This document shows, in pieces, positions 7,498 through 54,078 of a stretch of DNA of 64,000 bases. The stretch covers positions 160,001 through 224,000 of the forward strand of contig CAXXTU010000002.1 in the NCBI GenBank assembly GCA_963662655.2. The letters are read 5' to 3'. A program made the position numbers and the translations under genes. Each line of letters starts with the position of its first letter. Position 1 is the stretch's first letter. A model generated the notes under the pieces. The model saw only the letters and a list, made by a program, of their open reading frames with translations. It was not told the DNA's origin and searched no databases. The DNA comes from Candidatus Cloacimonadales bacterium. GTDB lineage: Bacteria; Cloacimonadota; Cloacimonadia; Cloacimonadales; JAIOQZ01.

Positions 7498-7540
7498 ATT
7501 GTACGATCTCACGCAGCAGGTGCGATCGGGCGAAGATGCG
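7498..7540 (+). repeat. Partial/degenerate copy of dispersed hairpin family H
   Basis: Right arm GATCGGGCGAAGATGC (7524-7539) matches the other copies. The left arm is degenerate (ATTGTACGATC). Confidence 0.55.
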
Positions 7541-7568
7541 CGTGTAGCCACGAATAGGTCCGATACAC

Positions 7569-7606
7569 AAAAAAAAGCCCCTCTCCTCAATCGAGGAGAG
7601 GGGCTT
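7569..7606 (-). terminator. Rho-independent terminator after tldD
   Basis: Perfect stem AAGCCCCTCTCCTC/GAGGAGAGGGGCTT followed by a T-run on the minus strand. Confidence 0.85.
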
Positions 7607-7619
7607 GGGGTGGGGTTCC

Positions 7620-24627: not shown

Positions 24628-24659
24628 CGTTCGGTATCTCTGAAATCGGTGCGAACCCT

Positions 24660-24773
24660 CGCGGCGGGGCGGCGTGAAGCCCTGTAAGGGCTTCGGCAGT
24701 TTTTGAAATGTTTTCCATCTGAAAACTTTTCAAAAACTGTTAGTGCGCGAAGCGCACACGCCGCCCCGCCGCG
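24660..24773. repeat. Four-way-junction structured element, family J copy B (inverted relative to copy A)
   Basis: Perfect 16-bp stem CGCGGCGGGGCGGCGT/ACGCCGCCCCGCCGCG enclosing GAAGCCCT-GTA-AGGGCTTC, CAGTTTTTGAAA...TTTCAAAAACTG and GTGCGC-GAA-GCGCAC. Confidence 0.8.
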
Positions 24774-24791
24774 CGGGTGTCCTCGGAGCGA

Positions 24792-33071: not shown

Positions 33072-33107
33072 AGGGGAGAGCCGGAAACGGTTCTCCCCTT
33101 TCTCTTT
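33072..33107 (+). terminator. Rho-independent terminator
   Basis: AGGGGAGAGCCG-GAAA-CGGTTCTCCCCT followed by a T-rich tail. Confidence 0.8.
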
Positions 33108-33162: not shown

Positions 33163-33256
33163 TTCATCCTGATCTTTTTTCTCTGTCGTCCTGAGTTTCC
33201 TTTCTCAATCATCCTGATCTTCCTTTTCTCTGTCATCCTGAGCGGAGTCGAAGGAT
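33163..33256 (+). repeat. Imperfect tandem duplication ending in a REP-like motif
   Basis: 'TCATCCTGATCTT..TTTTCTCTGTC(G/A)TCCTGAG' occurs twice; the second continues into TGTCATCCTGAGCGGAGTCGAAGGAT. Confidence 0.55.
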
Positions 33257-33386: not shown

Positions 33387-33511
33387 GGCGTGAGTAGATT
33401 CGTTCGATCTCCCTTTTCAACGTGGTCTTCCACATCATTTCATTACGTTCGATAGTCCTGATGATGTGGTCTTTCACGTTGAAAAGGGAGATCGGGCGAA
33501 GATATCACGCC
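33387..33511 (+). repeat. Dispersed long-hairpin family H, full copy
   Basis: About 50-nt imperfect inverted arms including a perfect 20-bp CGATCTCCCTTTTCAACGTG/CACGTTGAAAAGGGAGATCG; core TTCGTTCGATC/GATCGGGCGAA. Confidence 0.85.
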
Positions 33512-33587: not shown

Positions 33588-33617
33588 AAAAAGAAAACCC
33601 CGCCTGAATGACGGGGT
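33588..33617 (-). terminator. Probable terminator after add
   Basis: ACCCCG/CGGGGT stem followed by TTTTCTTTTT on the minus strand. Confidence 0.6.
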
Positions 33618-33648
33618 CCGCATTATCGTAACGAAGAGTTTTCCGTGA

Positions 33649-43857: not shown

Positions 43858-43937
43858 GTCGTCAGCAGATTCGTTCAATCGTACCGCAGACGTGCTATAT
43901 CCACGACGGAGGTGGGATTGGGCGAAGGTGCAACGAC
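43858..43937 (+). repeat. Dispersed long-hairpin family H, short copy
   Basis: AGATTCGTTCAATC...GATTGGGCGAAG, with a compensatory A-T pair replacing G-C; apical CGTG-CTATATC-CACG. Confidence 0.8.
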
Positions 43938-44202: not shown

Positions 44203-47200
44203 CTACTTGAGAAGCAGCATTTTCTTTGTGGAGTCGTAACCGTTTGTTTCCAGGCGGTACAGATACAATCCAGACGAGACCGCCTTGTCATTGTTGTCGC
44301 GGCCATGCCAGATGATGCTGTGATTGCCTTCGGCGAGATGGTCGTTCACCATCGTTTTCACTAGCTGTCCCTTGATATTGTATATCTTCAGGCTGGTTTT
44401 TCCTGCTTGCTTGAGGCTGAATTCGATCCGGGTCTCGGGATTGAACGGGTTCGGGAAGTTTCCGCGAAGTTGATTCGCATAGACCGGCGCATCAGGTTGG
44501 TGATCGGACATCGTGCCGTCCCAGTATACGCCGTCTATTTCAACCGGAACACTAGAACCGGCATCGTACACGACCTCGATCAGATAGCGATAGGTTTTCA
44601 GTGAATCGATTTGATCCTGATAGATATTCTCGGTAAGGTTATCCACGATCAGATGAATCGGGCCGGTCTCGCATTGACGGTAGATACGGAAGTTCTGGAA
44701 TTCCTCTCGCGACATTTCCTTGCGGCCCTTTTGATTGCGCACTGCATGGTGAGTCGGAGCTGCGTACTCCCATGACAGATTCACACGGCCATCCACAACC
44801 TCGGAAGCTGGAGTTACTACGGGCTGCAAGTAGGTAAGTACCAGGTTGTTGTTCTCCGATGCTGAACCGAGAACAGCTTCAATTCCCTCGATACGATCGC
44901 TCTCGAAATACTGGAGGCTTCCAAGCATGTCGTAGGTTCCCTCGGACGTGTAAAGGATATAATCGCCATCTTCGTTTGGACGGGTGGAGTAGCTCCCCAC
45001 GGTTACCAGAGCGTCCTCGACATCAGCAGCGTTTTCGCTCAACGTAACGGTACCGGAGACCACAACACCCTTTTCCTGGCTACCGGTGATGCTGACATCA
45101 TCGATCGTCCAGCCGTATGCGATCGTGGAGCCGTCGGAACCGAAGTGCCAGCGCAGCCGGGCGTAATTGCCTGCGTAGGGCATCAGGTTGAATACCGCTT
45201 CTGCCCACTGAGTTTGGTAACCTGTGTAAGCGGGTTCTCCACCGATACCGGTATTACTGAAGGCGATGGCGTCATCGGGATATCCGCCTTCAGGCTCGAT
45301 CACTTCCCACGTGTTTCCGCCATCGATGCTGATCTTCACGTTACCGCCGTCGCTACCGGTTTGAGTAAGGTATTTGTGCCAGAAATGCAGTTCCGTGCTG
45401 GTCCCGATGTAGAACAGCCCGGAATCGAGCTTCCAGTCCGCATTGTTCATGTAGTTTGCATACAGGCGAGTTCCCCAAGCCTTCTCCCCTGAATGCGCGC
45501 CCTGGCTCGGTGTTCCCCATTCCCATAAATCGTTGGATGAGAAGCCCCAGGCGCTTTCTTCGAAATCGGTCTGAGCTCCCCAGATTCCGATGGTCGCCAT
45601 GATATTGAATGTCTGAGGATTCCCTCCGCGCATTTCCACGTTCAAGGCGAATTCGGTGTTTGTCTCGGCGGGTACAGAAGAATCAATGCTGAGTCGATAG
45701 GCCTTCTGCATGTTCATGCCGGGGGTAAGATCGCCGAAACTGAGCTCGGCTTCTTCGATCGTAATCAGTTCATTATCAACCGTGAGTTCACCCATTACGT
45801 CGAAGGCCTTGGAGCTCGACTGGTTTTCGAGGCTGATTGCCAGGTAGGCATCCTCTCCGGGATCGAGAACGCCATCGTTATTGCCATTGATATCGTAAAC
45901 TACCGTCGACGAGAGCGTGACGGATGGCTTGATCACCGTGATGGTGAAGGGATATTCCCAGTAGCCGTCATCGTTGTTCAGTTGCAGCATGAAGTGCGCC
46001 ACGTATTGATTCGGGCACGATTCAAGAACATCGAAGGAAAAGTACGAGAGGTTGTATGCGCCGTAGGTACTTTGAATATCGGCATACTGGGCGTTCGCGT
46101 CAGTGATGTTGATGTATGGAGAATCGGTAACGATCGTACCGGTGTTATTGGTGGCTTCGGATAAGCCAACGTTATCGATGCGGATGCTCAGATCGATCGA
46201 TTCACCCGCATCCACGTATCCACTTCCGTCCGCATCGTGAATGGTGTAGTTGCCGTATACAAGGTAGCTGTCTTGCGAACTCATGGGCAAGCCGGTAAAC
46301 AGAATGGCCGTCTCGTTACCCAATTCCATCGCGCCACTTGGATATTCATCGTTGTAGGTGTACATGAGACCTCTCAACTCGGTGTGGTCTTCGATGCCTA
46401 CCGTGCAGTAGTTGCCCTGAGAACTATAGTTATCGTTGTAGCTGTCCACGTTGTTGAAGGTCTTGTACTGAATTTTGATCATTCCATCATAGGTTGGCGT
46501 CAGATAGGCTTCCGGATTGTACAGGATGATCTGGAAAGTCTCTTCGGCAGAGCTTTGCAAGTTCTGGTTATGGGACCACTCGATGACAAAGTAGCTCTCC
46601 TCTTCGTTGAACCATGTAAAGACGCCGCCCGGAGTGGTTCTCAGTTCATCCCAGAATGCCGCGACCATCGCCCGTGGTCCAAGCGCGCCCGGGATAAACC
46701 AGTTACGGAAGCTGACCTGCTCGCTTTGGGCAAACGTTATCCAGCCGTTGGAGCAGATTCCCACTTCGCTGTACTCTTCGCCGTAGAAATTGAATGTAAA
46801 CGGAAGATCGACATACACCAGGTCGTCACCCTGATCGACGTTGTCGTTGATTCCCGTGTTCGTACCCGTACCGCCATAGCTCGGATCGATCTCGATCCAA
46901 TCGTAAACCGGCGCTTCAAGATAGTCCGTATCACCGCTATCGTAGCAGACGTAGCCATAGGAATCGGGACCGATCGGATCGCCTGCGCCGCGGTTGCCGA
47001 CCTGGAGTGTGATATGTTCGATTTCCTCGTAACCGCTATCGTTGAAAAGGCGTAAGCTCGCCTTGACTTCCATGCCCGGAAGTGCGAGCGAGAGGCCGGT
47101 CACGTTGAACATATTCGATTCGCAGTTCACGACGGATCCCGGAGTGATGGGGCCGAAGTATGCGAGCGAGTCGTCGACGCGCAGGAAGTAGCTATTGGTG

Positions 47201-49683
47201 CTCAGCGCGCCGTACACATCCTGAAGGATGGTTTCGCCGTTGTTCTTGACTGTGATCTTCAGATCGCTCGATTCGCCCGGCTCGATTACGCCGTCGTCGC
47301 CGTCTTCGTACGTATAGCTTTCGATGTCGATGTCATTACCCATGATCTCCATCCAGAAGCTGCTGTCCCAACTGTTGCCGCCTTCTTCGGCGATCTCCAG
47401 ATCGAACCTCGCGTTGTGCATGTTCGGTGCGTCGGCCGCGATTTCGAAAACGTATCCCGATTGGCCTTCAGCGCCGTTCCCGGCAGAAATGCTGCCGAAG
47501 GTGTCCGTGTTCTGGGTAATGGCAATGTATGGATCGTCGGTTGAGATGATCGCGGTTACGTTGGTGGCGGAAGAACCGCTGAAGTTATACAGGTCGATGA
47601 CGAGCTCGATGGTTTCCCCCGAGTTCGGCTCACCATTGCTGTTACCGCTCGATGCGCCAGCATCGTCGTCGTCCACAACCATTTGCGTGAAGGAAACACC
47701 ACCGGTCGAAGCGATGCTGAAATCTTCAAGAAGCGGTATGTAGTCCGGCTTGGTAACGGTCAGATCAACGGAGCCCGTAATGGAGGGATCGAGATTGAGA
47801 GTTATGCGGCCGGCTTCGTCTGTGAGGCCGGTGGAGAAGATGTCTTCGTCCATGCGGGCAGTGACCCACGCTCCTTCGAGCGCTTCGCCGTTCTCTTTGG
47901 TAACGGTGACGTCGATATAACCCTGTCCCATGCCGATGGAGCTGTCGAATTCGGCATGCATCTCCATCGGTTCACCGTGCCAGATGTCCATGGACGGATC
48001 GCCCATCAAGTTACACCATTGGGTAAAACTCTGGGTCGAGGTTGAATTCACGTTGTTGTAGCCGAGATACAGGAAGAGTTTGCCGGCCATGATCGCCTGC
48101 CCCATGTTGTGCATCCCGCTCGAGAACAGACCGTGGAAAATGCCGCCATGAAGAATATTGTTGTACTGCGTGTGGGTGCTGGCCGTCGACATGCCGATCG
48201 CGCATGCTCCGGCTACGGGAGCGGACGGCGTACCGGCGCGGAGAATCGCTTCGGAACGAGCTTCCGAATAATCCGCAAACGATCCTGTGTCGCACGTAAT
48301 GATAACAGCGTTGAATAGATGATTAACATTATCGAGTCCGTACGCGTTGGATGTCTCCCAGTCGCTCATGTGATAATAGCCGCGATAGCTGAAGAAGAGC
48401 GCGCCGGCATTGAGAGCGAGGTCCATCTGCGACGGGCTTGGCTGGGCGGAATACATCTCGGTGAATGTATGTGTCGGATCGTAAGAGAGGATGTCCTCTT
48501 TGACATACTTGCTGGTGATTTCACAGGAGAGGCCGGAAGGGCTCGTATCGCCTACCAATAGCGAGTGATGATACCAGTCCGTATCCCCGGTGTATGGGGT
48601 TCTTTCGTATTTGACGATCTTCGAGAGGATTGTCATCATGTCCGTGGCATCGCCAATGGTCAATCTTCCCACGAAGAGTTCGGGTAGGATGTCGTTGCCG
48701 TCGAGGCAGGCGTAGGGATGGTCGCCTTCTCCATTGCTGGCGCCATAGTAGGTCGCGACGTCGTAGCTTCCACCGACATCACCGATGAGAATGACATACT
48801 CGGGCGGATTTTCCCATGTGTTGTACGCATCCTGGATATAGGCTTTGATACTCGTGTTGCTTGTTCCGATATCGCCCGTACTCACGATGGTCACTTCAAA
48901 CCCTTTGTTGCGTTTCCAGTTTGCAAGCTGCTGCACCTGGTCGTCTATGGCCGTGTTGTTGCACTGAACCATAAGAATGCTTGGATTCTGATATGCAGGT
49001 TCTTCATCCCTGATATCGTCGTAATTCAATAGCACGGAACGATAGAGCGGTTCGAAACTGCGCGATAGCGGACGCTCGTTGTGAATTTCGTTTACAGCTT
49101 GTGAGTTAATCGTGTTAATCGTGAAAGAAATGTCTTCACGAACGATCAACTCGTGGGAGGCAGCGTCGTAGGCGTATGGAAAAATGTTTACCGGAACCAT
49201 ACGGAGGTTACGCATGATAACGGGCTGGCCGACGACGACAGCTTCTTCCGGGTATACGGAATCTCCTTGATAGAAGGCGTCGTTCAGCGTTAGCGCGCTG
49301 GATCTGTTGGATACTTCATTCTGGTAAGGGTAAACTGGAGGAATGGCTGAACGATCCTCAACCATACTGAGCTGTTCGAGCTGAACGGAACCAGTATTGG
49401 GAACTGCTATCATTGTGCTGAAGAAGGGCAGCTCGGGCAATCCCTCTTCTGCGGTGACAAAGGGAATATCTCTTTCAGCGATCTCGATCTTCGAGAAAGC
49501 ACCATTCCCGGATTCGATTGTCTCCTCGGTCCACTCAGGTGTTGTAAAATGCAACTGCAAGGAACCGGATGAGATCGAATCGTGAGAGAAGACGTCTGCG
49601 TTTGTGAGCACTTGATTTTCCATGGAAAATAACAGCGCTGTGGCCATGATCAGGATCATAGATGCGAGGATCTTTTTTTGCAC
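44203..49683 (-). CDS. Large gingipain-like C25 family protein with a FlgD-Ig/T9SS-like C-terminal domain (paralog of 16705-22128)
   Basis: 'GLPELP', 'YVILIGD', 'VGRLT', 'LLVGDTSPSG', 'SYRGYY', 'IITCDTG', 'LMGDP', 'GPDSYGY'; tail 'NFPNPFNPET...KMLLLK'; AAGGAG RBS with GTG start. Confidence 0.88.
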   Translation of the reverse strand: MQKKILASMILIMATALLFSMENQVLTNADVFSHDSISSGSLQLHFTTPEWTEETIESGNGAFSKIEIAERDIPFVTAEEGLPELPFFSTMIAVPNTGSVQLEQLSMVEDRSAIPPVYPYQNEVSNRSSALTLNDAFYQGDSVYPEEAVVVGQPVIMRNLRMVPVNIFPYAYDAASHELIVREDISFTINTINSQAVNEIHNERPLSRSFEPLYRSVLLNYDDIRDEEPAYQNPSILMVQCNNTAIDDQVQQLANWKRNKGFEVTIVSTGDIGTSNTSIKAYIQDAYNTWENPPEYVILIGDVGGSYDVATYYGASNGEGDHPYACLDGNDILPELFVGRLTIGDATDMMTILSKIVKYERTPYTGDTDWYHHSLLVGDTSPSGLSCEITSKYVKEDILSYDPTHTFTEMYSAQPSPSQMDLALNAGALFFSYRGYYHMSDWETSNAYGLDNVNHLFNAVIITCDTGSFADYSEARSEAILRAGTPSAPVAGACAIGMSTASTHTQYNNILHGGIFHGLFSSGMHNMGQAIMAGKLFLYLGYNNVNSTSTQSFTQWCNLMGDPSMDIWHGEPMEMHAEFDSSIGMGQGYIDVTVTKENGEALEGAWVTARMDEDIFSTGLTDEAGRITLNLDPSITGSVDLTVTKPDYIPLLEDFSIASTGGVSFTQMVVDDDDAGASSGNSNGEPNSGETIELVIDLYNFSGSSATNVTAIISTDDPYIAITQNTDTFGSISAGNGAEGQSGYVFEIAADAPNMHNARFDLEIAEEGGNSWDSSFWMEIMGNDIDIESYTYEDGDDGVIEPGESSDLKITVKNNGETILQDVYGALSTNSYFLRVDDSLAYFGPITPGSVVNCESNMFNVTGLSLALPGMEVKASLRLFNDSGYEEIEHITLQVGNRGAGDPIGPDSYGYVCYDSGDTDYLEAPVYDWIEIDPSYGGTGTNTGINDNVDQGDDLVYVDLPFTFNFYGEEYSEVGICSNGWITFAQSEQVSFRNWFIPGALGPRAMVAAFWDELRTTPGGVFTWFNEEESYFVIEWSHNQNLQSSAEETFQIILYNPEAYLTPTYDGMIKIQYKTFNNVDSYNDNYSSQGNYCTVGIEDHTELRGLMYTYNDEYPSGAMELGNETAILFTGLPMSSQDSYLVYGNYTIHDADGSGYVDAGESIDLSIRIDNVGLSEATNNTGTIVTDSPYINITDANAQYADIQSTYGAYNLSYFSFDVLESCPNQYVAHFMLQLNNDDGYWEYPFTITVIKPSVTLSSTVVYDINGNNDGVLDPGEDAYLAISLENQSSSKAFDVMGELTVDNELITIEEAELSFGDLTPGMNMQKAYRLSIDSSVPAETNTEFALNVEMRGGNPQTFNIMATIGIWGAQTDFEESAWGFSSNDLWEWGTPSQGAHSGEKAWGTRLYANYMNNADWKLDSGLFYIGTSTELHFWHKYLTQTGSDGGNVKISIDGGNTWEVIEPEGGYPDDAIAFSNTGIGGEPAYTGYQTQWAEAVFNLMPYAGNYARLRWHFGSDGSTIAYGWTIDDVSITGSQEKGVVVSGTVTLSENAADVEDALVTVGSYSTRPNEDGDYILYTSEGTYDMLGSLQYFESDRIEGIEAVLGSASENNNLVLTYLQPVVTPASEVVDGRVNLSWEYAAPTHHAVRNQKGRKEMSREEFQNFRIYRQCETGPIHLIVDNLTENIYQDQIDSLKTYRYLIEVVYDAGSSVPVEIDGVYWDGTMSDHQPDAPVYANQLRGNFPNPFNPETRIEFSLKQAGKTSLKIYNIKGQLVKTMVNDHLAEGNHSIIWHGRDNNDKAVSSGLYLYRLETNGYDSTKKMLLLK

Positions 49684-49907
49684 AGTTAACTCCTTACTGT
49701 ATTGTATTGCGTAGTATTAATCCCAGATAAGACAATATATAATACAAGATAGATTCCAATTCTGTGATATTCGTGTGAACAAATCGTTTCCCCGTTCTTT
49801 ATTTGTTTGAAAAACACATAATTAGCTCTTTACCGCTTTTTTACTTGACCTGTGGTTATTGCGGATAATTTCTAACATGAATCAAAAAGAAGGACGAGGC
49901 TGGAATT

Positions 49908-52343
49908 GTGACAATGACATTGACTCAAGCTGGAAAATGGTTTATCAAAATGATCGTAGCGGGATTTTTTTTGCTAGCGATCCTCCCCCTGAATGCTCAA
50001 TCAAATCGAACCGGTAACATCGCGGGTCGTATCAAGGATGACGCCACGGAAGCGCCCATTCCGCAGGTCGCGGTGTTTATAGACGACGACGAAGCGTGGG
50101 GATTCTCGAATGAGAATGGCGAATACCTGATCAAGAATATCCCCGCCGGAACCCATCAGATCAGCTACAAGCGCGTGGGTTTCGAGCCTCGAACCAAAAT
50201 CAATGTTCTCATACAGCCCAACGTAACCCAGACGATCAACGTCGAGATGAAAGTCCAGACGCTGAAGATCGAGAAGTACACGGTTACCGGCGAAACGTTC
50301 TTCCGCGAGCCGGAAGACGCGCCAGTCAGCGCAAAAACGCTCGACATCGAAGAAATCCGCACGCAGCCTGCCGGGGCTTACGACATCCAGCGAGCGGTGC
50401 AGGTTACGCCGTCCGTGGTGTCGGGTTCCGACGCGATGAACGAGATCATCATCCGGGGCGCGAACTACGGAGAGAACCTCTTCGTGCTGGACAATATTGA
50501 ATTGCAGAACCCCAATCATTTTGCCTACCCCAATTACGGCGGCGGTCCCGTTTCGCTGATCACGCCGGAGATGGTGAAGGAACTCACGCTGTACAGCGGT
50601 GCGTTCCCCTCTCGCTACGGCAACAAGGCGTCCTCGGTTCTTGATATCCAGACACGCGACGGGAACGAGAAGGAGTATCAGATGATGGTCGATGCGAGCC
50701 TGACGGGCTACGGCGGCCACGTGGAGGGGCCCATCACCGACAAGAGTTCGTTCCTCGCATTCTATCACCACGGCTTCCTCAACCAGATTGCCGATGAGAT
50801 CGGCTTGAACGCAGACCCCGACTATCAGTCTGTATATGCCAAGGAGACCGTGCGGCTCTCTCCAACGAACAAGCTTACCTTCACGCAGCTTTGGGCGGAC
50901 AACTATGTGGAGGTCGCGCATGACGATTCCTCGGGATTCTCTTCGAGCGCAGATGGGGAAGATGTCTATCTGAAATCGGGCCAATATATGTTTGGCGCTA
51001 CATACAAGAAAGTATTCCACGGTCATTACTCGTTATATACGATCTACAACAGCCATCGCTGGTGGGATCTGGAGACCTATCTCGAAGGCGAGAAGGACGA
51101 CGAGCACCTTGCCACCGAATATATCGCGGACGAGAACCGGCTGGGCTTCAAGTACTCGCATTTCCTGCCCGAGACCTGGATCGGCAAGCTCGAACCGGGC
51201 GTTGCCATCGTTTACGACTACATCGATTCGGATCTGTATTTCAGGCCGGATACGACGTTTGTCTATGACTCGGACGGGACTATCGTCGATACGCTCAATG
51301 TGAACGGATTCGGCGAAGGTGCGATTGACTGGAGCAAGAAGGAATTCAACACCATGCGCTACAGCGGGTACCTGCAATGGGACAAAAGTTTTGGCAGGCT
51401 GAATGTGACTGCCGGTGGTCGTGTGAGCTATTTCGATTACACGGACGAGACGACCTTCGCTCCGACATTCGGATTGAAGTACCGCGTTACCGATTTTTCC
51501 AACCTGCGATTCGGATTGGGCAGATATTATCAGACGATCGACAACCTTGCGCTCTCGTACGACGACCGGAACAAGGATCTGCGTTCGAAGCAGGCGGATC
51601 ATCTTGTGCTCGGATGGGACGCTCTCCTTTCGGAGGCGGCATTGCTGCGGATCGAGACCTACTACAAAGAGTACGACAATTGCTTTGTCCGAGAGCATGA
51701 GACGACGGTGGATTCGCTTGACTGGTCGAGTAGAACGCTCAACTCCGGCGATGCATACAGCTATGGTATCGAGACCTTCATACAGAAGAAGTTGCAAGAC
51801 AACTGGTTCGGGTCGATCGCTTATTCATGGTCGAAGGCTTTTATCAAGGATTATCGATATCCAGACAAGGAAGTCCCCTGGGATTTCGATTACCGTAACG
51901 TGCTGTCCGTCGTAATGGGATACCAGTTCGACTTCCTGCAATACGACTGGTATCTGGATAATCGCGACTGGATGTTCTGGCTGGGATTCCTGTCCGTTCT
52001 ACCGGCAGATCAATCCGAGATTTCGCTAAAATTCCGCTATATGGGTGGACGTCCCTATACGGAGATGACGTATTCCGATGCGTCGCGGAAATGGTATTTC
52101 GATGCCGAAACCCAGCAGAACGGCGGGAGATTGCCCGATTACAAGCGCTTGGACTTGCATGTACATCACCACTGGCTGCGCGACAATATAACGATCGAGT
52201 ACTATTTCGAGATCGACAATCTCTTCAATCGCAAGAACGTGTGGAGCTACAATTTCAACGACAATCCCGATGGGACGCATAGTCGCGAAACGGTCTACCA
52301 GTGGGGACGAACGTTCCTGGCTGGTATAAAAATTGGATTTTAA
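49908..52343 (+). CDS. TonB-dependent receptor with an N-terminal carboxypeptidase-regulatory-like domain
   Basis: Plug 'IIIRGA...ENLFVLDNIE', 'GAFPSRYGNKASSVLDI', 'RLPDYKRLDL', 'NLFNRKN' and a C-terminal Phe. Exact start uncertain. Confidence 0.9.
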   Translation: MTMTLTQAGKWFIKMIVAGFFLLAILPLNAQSNRTGNIAGRIKDDATEAPIPQVAVFIDDDEAWGFSNENGEYLIKNIPAGTHQISYKRVGFEPRTKINVLIQPNVTQTINVEMKVQTLKIEKYTVTGETFFREPEDAPVSAKTLDIEEIRTQPAGAYDIQRAVQVTPSVVSGSDAMNEIIIRGANYGENLFVLDNIELQNPNHFAYPNYGGGPVSLITPEMVKELTLYSGAFPSRYGNKASSVLDIQTRDGNEKEYQMMVDASLTGYGGHVEGPITDKSSFLAFYHHGFLNQIADEIGLNADPDYQSVYAKETVRLSPTNKLTFTQLWADNYVEVAHDDSSGFSSSADGEDVYLKSGQYMFGATYKKVFHGHYSLYTIYNSHRWWDLETYLEGEKDDEHLATEYIADENRLGFKYSHFLPETWIGKLEPGVAIVYDYIDSDLYFRPDTTFVYDSDGTIVDTLNVNGFGEGAIDWSKKEFNTMRYSGYLQWDKSFGRLNVTAGGRVSYFDYTDETTFAPTFGLKYRVTDFSNLRFGLGRYYQTIDNLALSYDDRNKDLRSKQADHLVLGWDALLSEAALLRIETYYKEYDNCFVREHETTVDSLDWSSRTLNSGDAYSYGIETFIQKKLQDNWFGSIAYSWSKAFIKDYRYPDKEVPWDFDYRNVLSVVMGYQFDFLQYDWYLDNRDWMFWLGFLSVLPADQSEISLKFRYMGGRPYTEMTYSDASRKWYFDAETQQNGGRLPDYKRLDLHVHHHWLRDNITIEYYFEIDNLFNRKNVWSYNFNDNPDGTHSRETVYQWGRTFLAGIKIGF

Positions 52344-52415
52344 ATCAATTACATCAATTTTTGTTGACAGGATCGTTTTACTATTTCATCGTATCTTCAA
52401 TCGATGGAGGAATAT

Positions 52416-53885
52416 GTGAGAAAGTATGCTTTGATCGGCCTTCTGGCCTTGTTAACGATTCATTTGTTTGCCCAGGGTTACGACCAGTGGAATTATCCGA
52501 GATTCAGCGGAGTGCAGGAAGACGATACGATCATGATTCGTTGTGAAGCGAGCTTGCAGACGATGGTTCTGAATCTTGTCGAGGGTGAAGTGAACGAAAC
52601 GAACATGATTCAGAATGGCCCGGGGATCGAGACCTTTTCCGCCAATGTTCCTGCTCCTGCCGGCGACGACAAGTATTTTGGATTCAGGATCGTTGGTGAG
52701 AACGAGAATTTCGCGTTGCCGGTGTATTATCCATTAGCCGACATGCCTCCGGCATCGAGGATTACCAAGCTTGCGGATGACGATCCCGACGATTCGCTTC
52801 TCGACGACGCGAACATGGAGATCGTAGCGGATTACGCCACGTTCTCGAACAACCATCTGATTGCTTCGATCGAGAATGCAGGTGGGGGCTTCCCTACGTC
52901 TGCCGGCTGGACTTTCTTCACATACTCATTTGGGATACTGAATCCCCTGGATCCGGAGACATTCCCGGTGTTTGCGATGGTTTATACGGTGAATCAGCCG
53001 GGCATCATGCAGCCGGGGCTCTATAAAATGGTTGGCGATAGCGGATTGGACGATATGATCATGATCGGCGATATCGTGACCGAGGTTGATGCTGCGAACA
53101 ATCGCCTTTCGATGTATTGCGACTGGCAGGATCTATTGGATGACGACGATTTCACCAGTTGGTTCGATCTGGAGAATCCACACATCCTTTGCGGTTCCAT
53201 GACTGCGGAGTACTCGATTACACAGGGTATGGTCAACGCCGACAACGGAATAGGCACGCACCTCTATCCGAGGGCGTTCATAATAGAACCATTTACAAAC
53301 ACAATGCCGCAACTTACCGACATTCATCTGATTCAGGAAGGCGAGCAAGCCTATATCGAGCTCAACTACTCGGATGCCGAGAGCAATTTCCCGATTCTGG
53401 CAGAGGTCGAGGCCGAAGGTGTGACTCGAAGCTTCTATCCGATGAGCTACGACTACACAGAAACGGTTGCGTTCCGCTCGGAGAATATTGCCGATCTGAT
53501 CAGCGGAAGTGGCGGATTCAGCGGCGAAATCAACTTCAGCGACGACAACATTCATTTTGCGACGGAGTACCTCATGGATGTCGATGCCGGAGATGTTCAT
53601 GGTTTTACACGCACGGATTTGATGCCCAACATGCCGAATCCATTCAACCCGAACACCGAGATCAACTACAGCCTGGCTCAGGATTCTCATGTTAATCTTT
53701 CCATTTACAACAGTAAGGGGCAGATTGTTCGAGAGCTGGATTCCGGTCACAAGAAGACGGGCATTCACAGTGTGTCCTGGGACGGCCTGGACCGGAAGGG
53801 TCATTCGGTTGCCACGGGTGTGTACTTATACATACTCAAGACGGATTCCGAGAAGATCGTACGCAAGATGCTTCTTCTCAAGTAG
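52416..53885 (+). CDS. Secreted protein of unknown function with a FlgD-Ig/T9SS-like C-terminal domain
   Basis: Signal peptide (GTG 52416 after GGAGG), acidic unrecognised body, tail 'NMPNPFNPNT...TGVYLY...KMLLLK'. Confidence 0.8.
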   Translation: MRKYALIGLLALLTIHLFAQGYDQWNYPRFSGVQEDDTIMIRCEASLQTMVLNLVEGEVNETNMIQNGPGIETFSANVPAPAGDDKYFGFRIVGENENFALPVYYPLADMPPASRITKLADDDPDDSLLDDANMEIVADYATFSNNHLIASIENAGGGFPTSAGWTFFTYSFGILNPLDPETFPVFAMVYTVNQPGIMQPGLYKMVGDSGLDDMIMIGDIVTEVDAANNRLSMYCDWQDLLDDDDFTSWFDLENPHILCGSMTAEYSITQGMVNADNGIGTHLYPRAFIIEPFTNTMPQLTDIHLIQEGEQAYIELNYSDAESNFPILAEVEAEGVTRSFYPMSYDYTETVAFRSENIADLISGSGGFSGEINFSDDNIHFATEYLMDVDAGDVHGFTRTDLMPNMPNPFNPNTEINYSLAQDSHVNLSIYNSKGQIVRELDSGHKKTGIHSVSWDGLDRKGHSVATGVYLYILKTDSEKIVRKMLLLK

Positions 53886-53948: not shown

Positions 53949-54078
53949 GGCGTGGCATCTTCGCCCGATCCCTCGCTCCATCGTGGATATACCACACCCT
54001 TGCAGGAAAAAGGGGATAAGGTGGCAAGGGTGTGAAACACCACGATTCCGCTGACGATCGAACGAACCTCCTCACACC
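53949..54078 (-). repeat. Dispersed long-hairpin family H, full copy (inverted)
   Basis: Minus strand reads GGTGTG..GGTTCGTTCGATC...CGTGGTGTTTCACACCCTTGC...GCAAGGGTGTGGTATATCCACG...GATCGGGCGAAGATGCCACGCC, colinear with 33387-33511. Confidence 0.85.

Follow-up and report, generated by a model that had tools for sequence, protein, structure and literature searches.

Long hairpins recur between the genes of the window, a 64-kb stretch of contig C2 from a Candidatus Cloacimonadales bacterium (G000:C2:160001-224000, G000 being the source genome), and the question they raise is what places and keeps such a structure there. A sequence-only reading of the window had recorded four copies and had not recognised the family. 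We use the label family H for this hairpin repeat, which is structured, intergenic and about 130 nt long, and follow it here through G000 and three congeners, G001-G003.

Copies of family H in the 64-kb window

All four hairpins of the sequence-only reading are found by sequence as well as by covariance model (Table 1). Their model scores are 130, 114, 63 and 16 bits, two of the four copies having belonged to the training set of the model. The earlier description holds for the shared helix TTCGTTCRATC/GATYGGGCGAA with its two T·G pairs, the G-C pair that has become A-T in the 43858 copy, the facing GTG..CAC boxes of the long copies and, in the short copy, the lone box at the apex. The copy at 7498 had been taken for a right arm only. 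That arm is indeed intact, but a decayed left arm persists, and the element is thus a shrunken copy. With TCTT in each of its boxes, the 33387 copy represents an atypical subfamily; from the outside inward it consists of the outer stem, a bulged A, a tandem G·A, the 11-bp helix with two T·G, a perfected variable stem, the internal loop, the inner stem and the apical loop. Relative to shuffled sequences, the three full window copies fold with z-scores of -11.2, -3.7 and -5.4 as RNA and -11.4, -3.6 and -3.7 as DNA, and all three fold better on the named strand than on its complement; the 7498 copy folds no better than its shuffles. An Rfam scan of the window gives no match on the family H hairpins.

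The 43858 copy starts 22 nt past the stop codon of an Era-like GTPase gene, and the 53949 copy is flanked by a gene for a protein with an FlgD tail and an aminotransferase gene. At window positions 10423-33055 and 44203-53885, a cluster of genes encodes large secreted proteins whose domains include peptidases (C25 or M14), CotH and tails of FlgD/type IX-like type. The hairpin next to the 7498 copy may also act as a terminator for a minus-strand gene.

Table 1. Features of family H copies and their surroundings, in window coordinates
Feature	Position	Strand	Remarks
Full copy, family H	33387..33511	+	standard ~125-nt class, TCTT-box subfamily
Conserved helix, left arm, 33387 copy	33399..33409	+	
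Box A (GTG-N6-CAC)	33422..33433	+	left strand of conserved internal loop
Box B	33466..33477	+	right strand of conserved internal loop
Conserved helix, right arm, 33387 copy	33490..33500	+	
Short copy, family H	43858..43937	+	inter-box segment deleted, box B at apex
Full copy, family H	53949..54078	-	imperfect GGA/GGA variable stem
Decayed mini-copy, family H	7498..7542	+	left arm worn, both boxes lost, right arm intact; model E=0.021
DUF559-repeat-like hairpin	7578..7617	+	3' of the 7498 mini-copy, as in relatives; by eye
Separate repeat, elsewhere flanking a small GIY-YIG gene	33231..33255	+	130 nt 5' of the 33387 copy
Terminator-like site, upstream peptidase gene	33072..33099	+	
Terminator-like site, adenosine deaminase gene	33595..33619	-	

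Family H is a multicopy intergenic repeat of a single genus

Searched with a profile of each arm, G000 yields 126 full copies and 16 half copies, several of the latter being diverged full ones; by our own simple gene caller all 126 full copies are intergenic. A covariance model built from 46 copies was then used for the genome scan that the sequence-only reading had proposed, and it finds many further copies in G000 and its three congeners: 133 matches in G000, 63 in G003, 38 in G002 and 33 in G001, in a search that scored at most 150 candidates per genome and counts a few reverse-strand duplicates. In 117 other genomes of the order (four of the same family and 113 more) the model has no match. 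Across the phylum, a pattern search places family H in 4 of 232 genomes, all of one genus. Pattern matches outside the genus, 45 in number (17 in genomes, 28 in metagenomes), all fail the covariance model and are due to chance. Viral contigs, plasmids and phages gave no match. The family, which the sequence-only reading had not recognised, answers to no Rfam entry: the window and eight further loci give sub-threshold matches only, those at the eight loci of miRNA type. Nor is it described in the literature searched, the supplement of PMC6006769 included. Family H is genus-specific and apparently undescribed. The copies share ancestry, and the counts overstate the number of independent events.

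Orientation follows replication rather than gene arrangement

The sequence-only reading had placed every copy at a convergent gene junction, two of them between opposing terminators. Convergence applies to four of the four window copies, and the 33387 copy does lie between two terminator-like sites (Table 1); the pair around the 53949 copy is seen by eye only. Genome-wide, though, only 55 of the 126 full copies occupy convergent gaps, against a background of 156 of 1038 large intergenic gaps, and 71 are in tandem or divergent ones; convergence is a tendency and does not define the family. The folding strand of the 62 tandem-gap copies is antisense to the genes in 42 cases and sense in 20, and nine copies lie between divergent genes.

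What orders family H is the direction of replication, not convergence. If dnaA (C2 2,766,490) marks the origin and a site near 796,570 on C2 that resembles dif marks the terminus, 91 of 122 C2 copies have their folding strand as the leading-strand template (91:31, p=5e-8). The skew maximum is near 805,000. The split is 38:15 in convergent gaps, 9:0 in divergent gaps, and 31:7 and 13:9 in tandem gaps. Local skew agrees for 88 of the 91 copies in the majority orientation. Of the 31 exceptions, 9 are in stretches that look inverted locally, compared with 24 of 243 control places. The G001 matches form two blocks of opposite strand, which account for 32 of the 33; the pattern search added one further exception. 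Among copies of the relatives, 56 of 59 occupy the strand that is richer in C locally. Such a bias is not universal among repeats, since two other repeats of G000 split 31:13 and 14:14 by replication strand. Family H is present in every 200-kb bin of C2. Between 0.3 and 0.7 Mb of C2, genes are mostly on the skew-defined lagging strand, by about 2 to 1.

Conserved mismatches on one strand of the fold

Our parse covers 116 of the 126 copies, of which 113 were counted, and favours copies with the usual loop. From the outside inward, it describes an outer stem of 6 bp whose sequence is free; a bulged A, present in 100 of 113 copies, and a 3-bp stem; a tandem G·A, as GA/GA in 78 of 113 and as GG/GA or GA/GG in 28; the 11-bp helix, whose two T·G pairs are retained at 205 of 226 positions; some 11 bp of variable stem, followed by GTGG/CCAC; the internal loop TGTT/TATAT, kept in 112 of 113 copies on each side; and a core of inner stem and variable apex, the latter as small as a few bases or as large as a set of tandem modules approaching 300. 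A class of 165-169 nt bears additional sub-hairpins.

The named strand folds better than its complement in 125 of 126 copies as RNA and in 120 of 126 as DNA. Mismatches in 79 variable stems are GA (88), GT (41), GG (26) and AA (5) as against AC (9), TT (7), TC (4) and CC (2), and the pair closing the internal loop is AT 42 times, TG 41, CG 21, GC 8 and TA once, while A·C never occurs. One strand is under selection, because both the mismatch spectrum and the closing pair are biased by strand; the selection on a single-stranded fold that had been proposed from the wobble pairs of the window copies is thus borne out by mismatch and strand statistics alike. The covariation score is 0.455, whereas shuffles give 0.169 and slid controls no more than 0.123; it is 0.490 in 45 distinct copies of the relatives, whose alignment was fitted to the model. 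Where covariation in the variable stems is perfect, much of it looks like the copying of one arm onto the other, and it is therefore weaker evidence of selection than the retained mismatches are. In 50 perfected variable stems, the left arm appears to have been overwritten from the right 41 times and the right from the left once, with eight unclear. Fold-back of the nascent strand is a mutation route described in the available part of PMC7202029, and the 41:1 ratio fits such fold-back of the nascent leading strand; the alternative is selection for a purine-rich right arm.

Three-base GNA loops close 12 of 12 apices in the short class of the relatives and 13 of 19 sub-hairpins of the long class (12 of 15 loci; all four bases at N), and GNA/GNA internal loops occur in 47 of 113 stems. 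GNA mini-hairpins are much less stable as RNA and are present in single-stranded priming sites of phages and plasmids (PMC13037366, in part), and the loops point to folded DNA rather than RNA. An unselected census of three-base loops is neutral: each strand has 17 GNA loops, since on the opposite strand box A, too, can give rise to one.

Filled and empty sites

Empty sites in relatives, which the sequence-only reading had suggested looking for, are seen at conserved junctions. Across 400 kb of G001, all seven conserved junctions that are filled in G000 are empty in G001, and two sites with a copy in G002/G003 are empty in G000. Further sites are common to species, at times with a different subfamily or the opposite orientation. 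The relatives are about 70% identical to G000 in DNA, so an empty site could also be one that has lost its copy. Contigs of what may be the source sample showed no joint of an empty site, a result that carries no information either way. Direct repeats of 4-9 nt around 123 copies are at the level of shuffles, which gives no sign of target duplication, and the ends are not sharp, conservation fading about 12 nt to the left and about 18 nt to the right of the conserved core. No two G000 cores are identical, which weighs against mobility at present.

Near-identical cores often lie within different outer stems. The closest-related copy is less than 20 kb away for 11 of 123 copies, against 1.4 in shuffles (maximum 9), and tandem duplications exist. 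The two loop strands of G001 copies can change places while keeping their sense, an arrangement that suggests a tandem or circular intermediate. Inverted doublets of the whole element also occur, though few in number. A 285-bp tail-to-tail doublet with a common spacer is found twice, at C2 2349458-2349742 and 2468378-2468660; doublets can evidently be copied as a unit, since this one recurs with its spacer.

A polar mosaic with Y1 REPs and DUF559 repeats

G001-G003 encode Y1 transposases (IS200-like and RAYT by NCBIfam) and DUF559 nucleases, and each of these genes is flanked by its own repeats; G000 has neither a Y1 transposase nor a DUF559 gene. We counted matches to a library of these gene flanks around 59 copies of the relatives, with orthologous G002/G003 copies not independent. 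Y1 REPs lie 16 times on the 5' side of family H and twice on its 3' side, DUF559 repeats 12 times on the 3' side and twice on the 5' side. The 126 G000 copies have a Y1 REP 5' in three and 3' in three, and a DUF559 repeat 3' in one and 5' in none. Looser patterns, written after the flanks had been seen, give 25 vs 1 and 19 vs 1 in the same orientation. The 5' REP is present whether the upstream gene points in (14 of 34) or away (5 of 18; one doubtful match dropped). Repeated arrival rather than one ancestral composite is argued for by the several distinct REP families that occupy the 5' place. The fixed order in which unrelated repeats stand around family H suggests that repeat mosaics are built by the geometry of the replication fork and not by where genes lie.

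The small DUF559 (Vsr-like) genes of G001-G003 (for example at L267 and L268) have palindromic repeats of their own that are also dispersed, a REP-RAYT-like pairing with a different enzyme. The literature searched gave no description of a DUF559 nuclease paired with a repeat family. G001-G003 also have repeat piles without family H, and another long hairpin repeat, unrelated to it, recurs in REP piles at G001 197,560-197,620 and similar places.

Search for a mobilising enzyme

The sequence-only reading had suggested an HUH/RAYT partner, and none was found flanked by family H. G000 has no Y1_Tnp. No copy lies within about 1.5 kb of any of 17 Y1 loci from five relatives, where other REPs are found, or of 17 tyrosine-recombinase loci of the relatives (together 34 loci, leaving aside G004/G007 recombinases and duplicates). 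The same distance around nine DUF559 loci and one GxxExxY locus, six GIY-YIG and three reverse-transcriptase loci, four four-helix-bundle and nine HNH loci (excluding a G000 helicase-HNH locus with a known copy) and 17 IS110 loci is likewise free of family H. The genus lacks TnpB, Rpn and GxxExxY. Pfam searches with 82 of the 93 genes in 20 G000 stretches, mostly beside copies (about 280 flanking genes in total), gave no transposase, and several of the genes have no family.

Three candidates that neighbour G000 copies did not hold up, and an ISL3-like element was rejected as a partner as well. A XerC/D-like gene and a helicase-HNH gene each abut one copy, while their counterparts in G001-G003 do not. 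A broken reverse-transcriptase gene is found at a distance of 3 kb from another, but G001 lacks a reverse transcriptase altogether. The ISL3-like element (13 copies) comes within 60 nt of three family H elements, but it inserts in the A/T runs of terminators. C2 also carries about eight copies of an IS3-like element; both names come from reading proteins and ends. At C2 981,040-982,610 (L260), an AT-rich reverse-transcriptase gene with one internal stop is inserted after an ornithine carbamoyltransferase-like gene.

Family H compared with known elements

REPINs, as far as parts of PMC3116915 describe them, share with family H an extragenic position, high copy number, a long hairpin with conserved ends and a free spacer with compensatory changes, lineage-specific abundance and a presumed mobility in trans as ssDNA. 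Unlike theirs, the arms of family H are not inverted REP copies that each fold on themselves; its conserved features are mismatches between the arms, its orientation to replication is strong, and no RAYT gene is flanked by it or present in G000. It works in the manner of a REPIN or BIME (PMC3116915 and PMC3733652, each in part), but without a guide at the foot or a cognate RAYT. Like the "double-foot" long REPs of TnpA-REP subclass 2.4 in PMC6006769, it pairs GTGG with CCAC at the base of the inner hairpin, as 80 of the 116 copies parsed show, and a GTAG/CTAC variant occurs. Where the REP guide, by the rule stated in that paper, lies 0-2 nt from its hairpin, the GTGG of family H is internal, paired and 4-5 nt off, is often GGGG or AGGG, and is enclosed by about 35 further base pairs. 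The outer position, also paired, is GCAG in 80% and GTAG in 10% of copies.

The BIMEs of E. coli are ordered mosaics of different short repeats in intergenic DNA; the mosaic described here differs in that the repeats it joins belong to unrelated enzymes, and a long hairpin stands at its centre with Y1 REPs 5' and DUF559 repeats 3'. Integron attC sites, whose R boxes have a GTT/AAC core consensus unlike the GTG..CAC boxes of family H, resemble it in other respects. Excerpts of PMC5371416 describe structure conserved above sequence, an unpaired central loop, an extrahelical base, a variable terminal structure and an active strand on the leading template; family H, in contrast, is dispersed among housekeeping genes, forms no arrays, has no linked integron integrase and is not enriched at rearrangements. 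Non-autonomous derivatives of IS200/IS605 elements also have asymmetric ends, no target duplication and an orientation linked to replication (PMC3971601, in part, which documents orientation bias of IS family by family). They differ in having two subterminal hairpins of 20-25 nt instead of one long one and the opposite strand preference; family H has no sharp target tetranucleotide, and its genus no TnpB. A DDE-transposon MITE was rejected: there is no target-site duplication, the two multi-copy IS of G000 have ends that, judged by eye, bear no relation to it, and the outer stem varies in sequence. Resemblances to a DnaA box, a dif arm, a -10 promoter, a hammerhead core and retron msDNA were considered and dropped for lack of support. 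Family H is best regarded as a variant of the REP/REPIN-like non-autonomous elements with an unusual strand rule and a polar mosaic, and is not a member of the REPs.

Explanations for family H

We consider family H to be probably a non-coding mobile element that acts as folded ssDNA and is moved in trans by a single-strand nuclease. The sequence-only reading had preferred a non-autonomous REP-like ssDNA element to a 3'-UTR signal, and gene position, filled and empty sites and replication orientation all side with it. Several facts speak against a mobile element: no mobiliser was found at the loci searched, G000 is richest in copies, yet has no Y1 transposase or DUF559 gene, the ends are not sharp, no two cores in G000 are identical, and the preferred folding strand is opposite to that of IS608-type elements, which use the lagging-strand template (PMC6006769, in part). 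If the repeat were instead a structured RNA, either a 3'-UTR element for stability or processing or many small RNA genes, then tandem G·A and G·U pairs, a fold on one strand, covariation well above shuffles (0.455 and 0.490 vs 0.17) and a preference for gene 3' ends would be expected; but the tandem-gap copies that are mostly antisense and the nine between divergent genes, an orientation that tracks replication irrespective of genes, the DNA-type GNA loops and the want of an Rfam match leave this quite improbable. A host-selected replication signal, folded on the leading template as a site of repriming, fork pausing or protein loading like single-strand initiation signals and spreading by its benefit to the cell, would account for the strong orientation in all four genomes, the copies in every bin of C2, motifs kept across species about 70% identical, with some sites in common, and the resemblance to the GNA mini-hairpins of phage and plasmid priming sites (PMC13037366, in part). 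Such a signal would hardly be confined to one genus (4 of 232 genomes) with a fourfold spread in copy number, 31 of 122 copies in the opposite orientation and most positions not shared, and we think it rather unlikely.

It is improbable, too, that family H is a passive passenger without an enzyme of its own, spread in REP mosaics and by gene conversion and slippage, with a strand bias due solely to the loss of lagging-template hairpins. The multi-family repeat piles of the relatives, the tandem duplications, the excess of similar copies within 20 kb and the lack of a partner enzyme at the loci searched are what a passenger would show; against it, G000 has the most copies but almost no REP flanks, and a reader protein is needed, because the T·G pairs (205 of 226) and loop strands (112 of 113) were kept while the stems next to them were being perfected. 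The faintest of these probabilities attaches to an attC-like site on folded DNA at which a tyrosine recombinase shuffles chromosomal genes. An unpaired spacer between two boxes, a terminal structure that varies and a leading-template strand as in sedentary integrons (PMC5371416, in part) recall one, 53 of 60 relatives' copies are at junctions non-syntenic with G000, and there is the XerC/D-like gene that abuts a G000 copy. However, there are no arrays and no GTT/AAC core, the neighbours are housekeeping genes, and the 17 recombinase loci of the relatives have no copy. Nor is breakage higher than at matched junctions without a copy (convergent, 9 of 13 gene ends with a copy vs 13 of 17 without; tandem, 11 of 21 vs 46 of 88), and a recombination hot spot or gene-shuffling site is thereby largely refuted.

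For the mobile element that we favour, we envisage a protein that would read the fixed non-Watson-Crick features (the bulged A, the tandem G·A, the two T·G pairs and the pseudo-symmetric TGTT/TATAT loop) and leave the stem sequence free. Movement would be in trans without target duplication, most plausibly by a Y1 HUH enzyme since lost from G000; that the mobiliser was a Y1 HUH transposase is nevertheless a tentative and rather doubtful identification. Copies on the leading template might accumulate by preferential insertion, or because lagging-template copies would fold more and get lost. The strand bias may reflect survival rather than insertion, since IS608-type elements use the lagging template, and a survival reading of orientation has been argued for the attC sites of sedentary integrons (PMC5371416, in the part available). 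Once in place, copies would be reshaped through fold-back synthesis and would swap inner modules with one another. On the leading template, a hairpin would expose ssDNA on its 5' side, and this could be why Y1-type REPs collect there. An unlikely but wider possibility is a new class of non-autonomous ssDNA element, recognised by shape on the leading template, opposite to IS200/IS605, by an enzyme outside the RAYT, IS200, IS110, IS91 and integrase links, whose fork-stalling hairpin would serve unrelated selfish repeats as a polar landing pad (Y1 REPs 5', DUF559 repeats 3').

For the spread of REP-like repeats, family H offers a test case: some 270 natural variants separate the required unpaired features from the free stems, and a strand preference opposite to that of IS608-type elements comes with a one-way record of arm copying. 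The analysis also links DUF559 nucleases to a repeat family of their own, and a protein that reads the family H fold could be a new structure-specific ssDNA enzyme.

Other repeats in G000 and its relatives

A second repeat in the window (24640-24790; about 46 motif matches genome-wide) has GC-rich inverted arms around several perfect sub-hairpins, one with a GNA loop, and shows no strand bias (the 14:14 split above). One copy directly follows a XerC/D-like gene at C2 1,848,570, and in G001 and G003 an IS200-like tnpA lies beside a similar recombinase gene. The repeat at 33231-33255 flanks, at C2 ~884,650-885,650 (L259), a small GIY-YIG gene with an internal stop; its 44 C2 matches split 31:13 by replication strand, in the sense opposite to family H as read. 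Two IS110-family elements of G002 (L314-L330), with seven and ten copies, lie inside REPs, one in a GTAG-type REP and one beside a GIY-YIG-type repeat. At L183, L184 and L188, a TnpA with the subclass 1.2 signature is flanked by REP-like palindromes, although the table in PMC6006769 gives no REPs for that subclass. One such REP, at L098:1401-1436, scores 30.1 bits on the Rfam family Acido-Lenti-1 (gathering threshold 37), so that this "RNA" family may be a REP.
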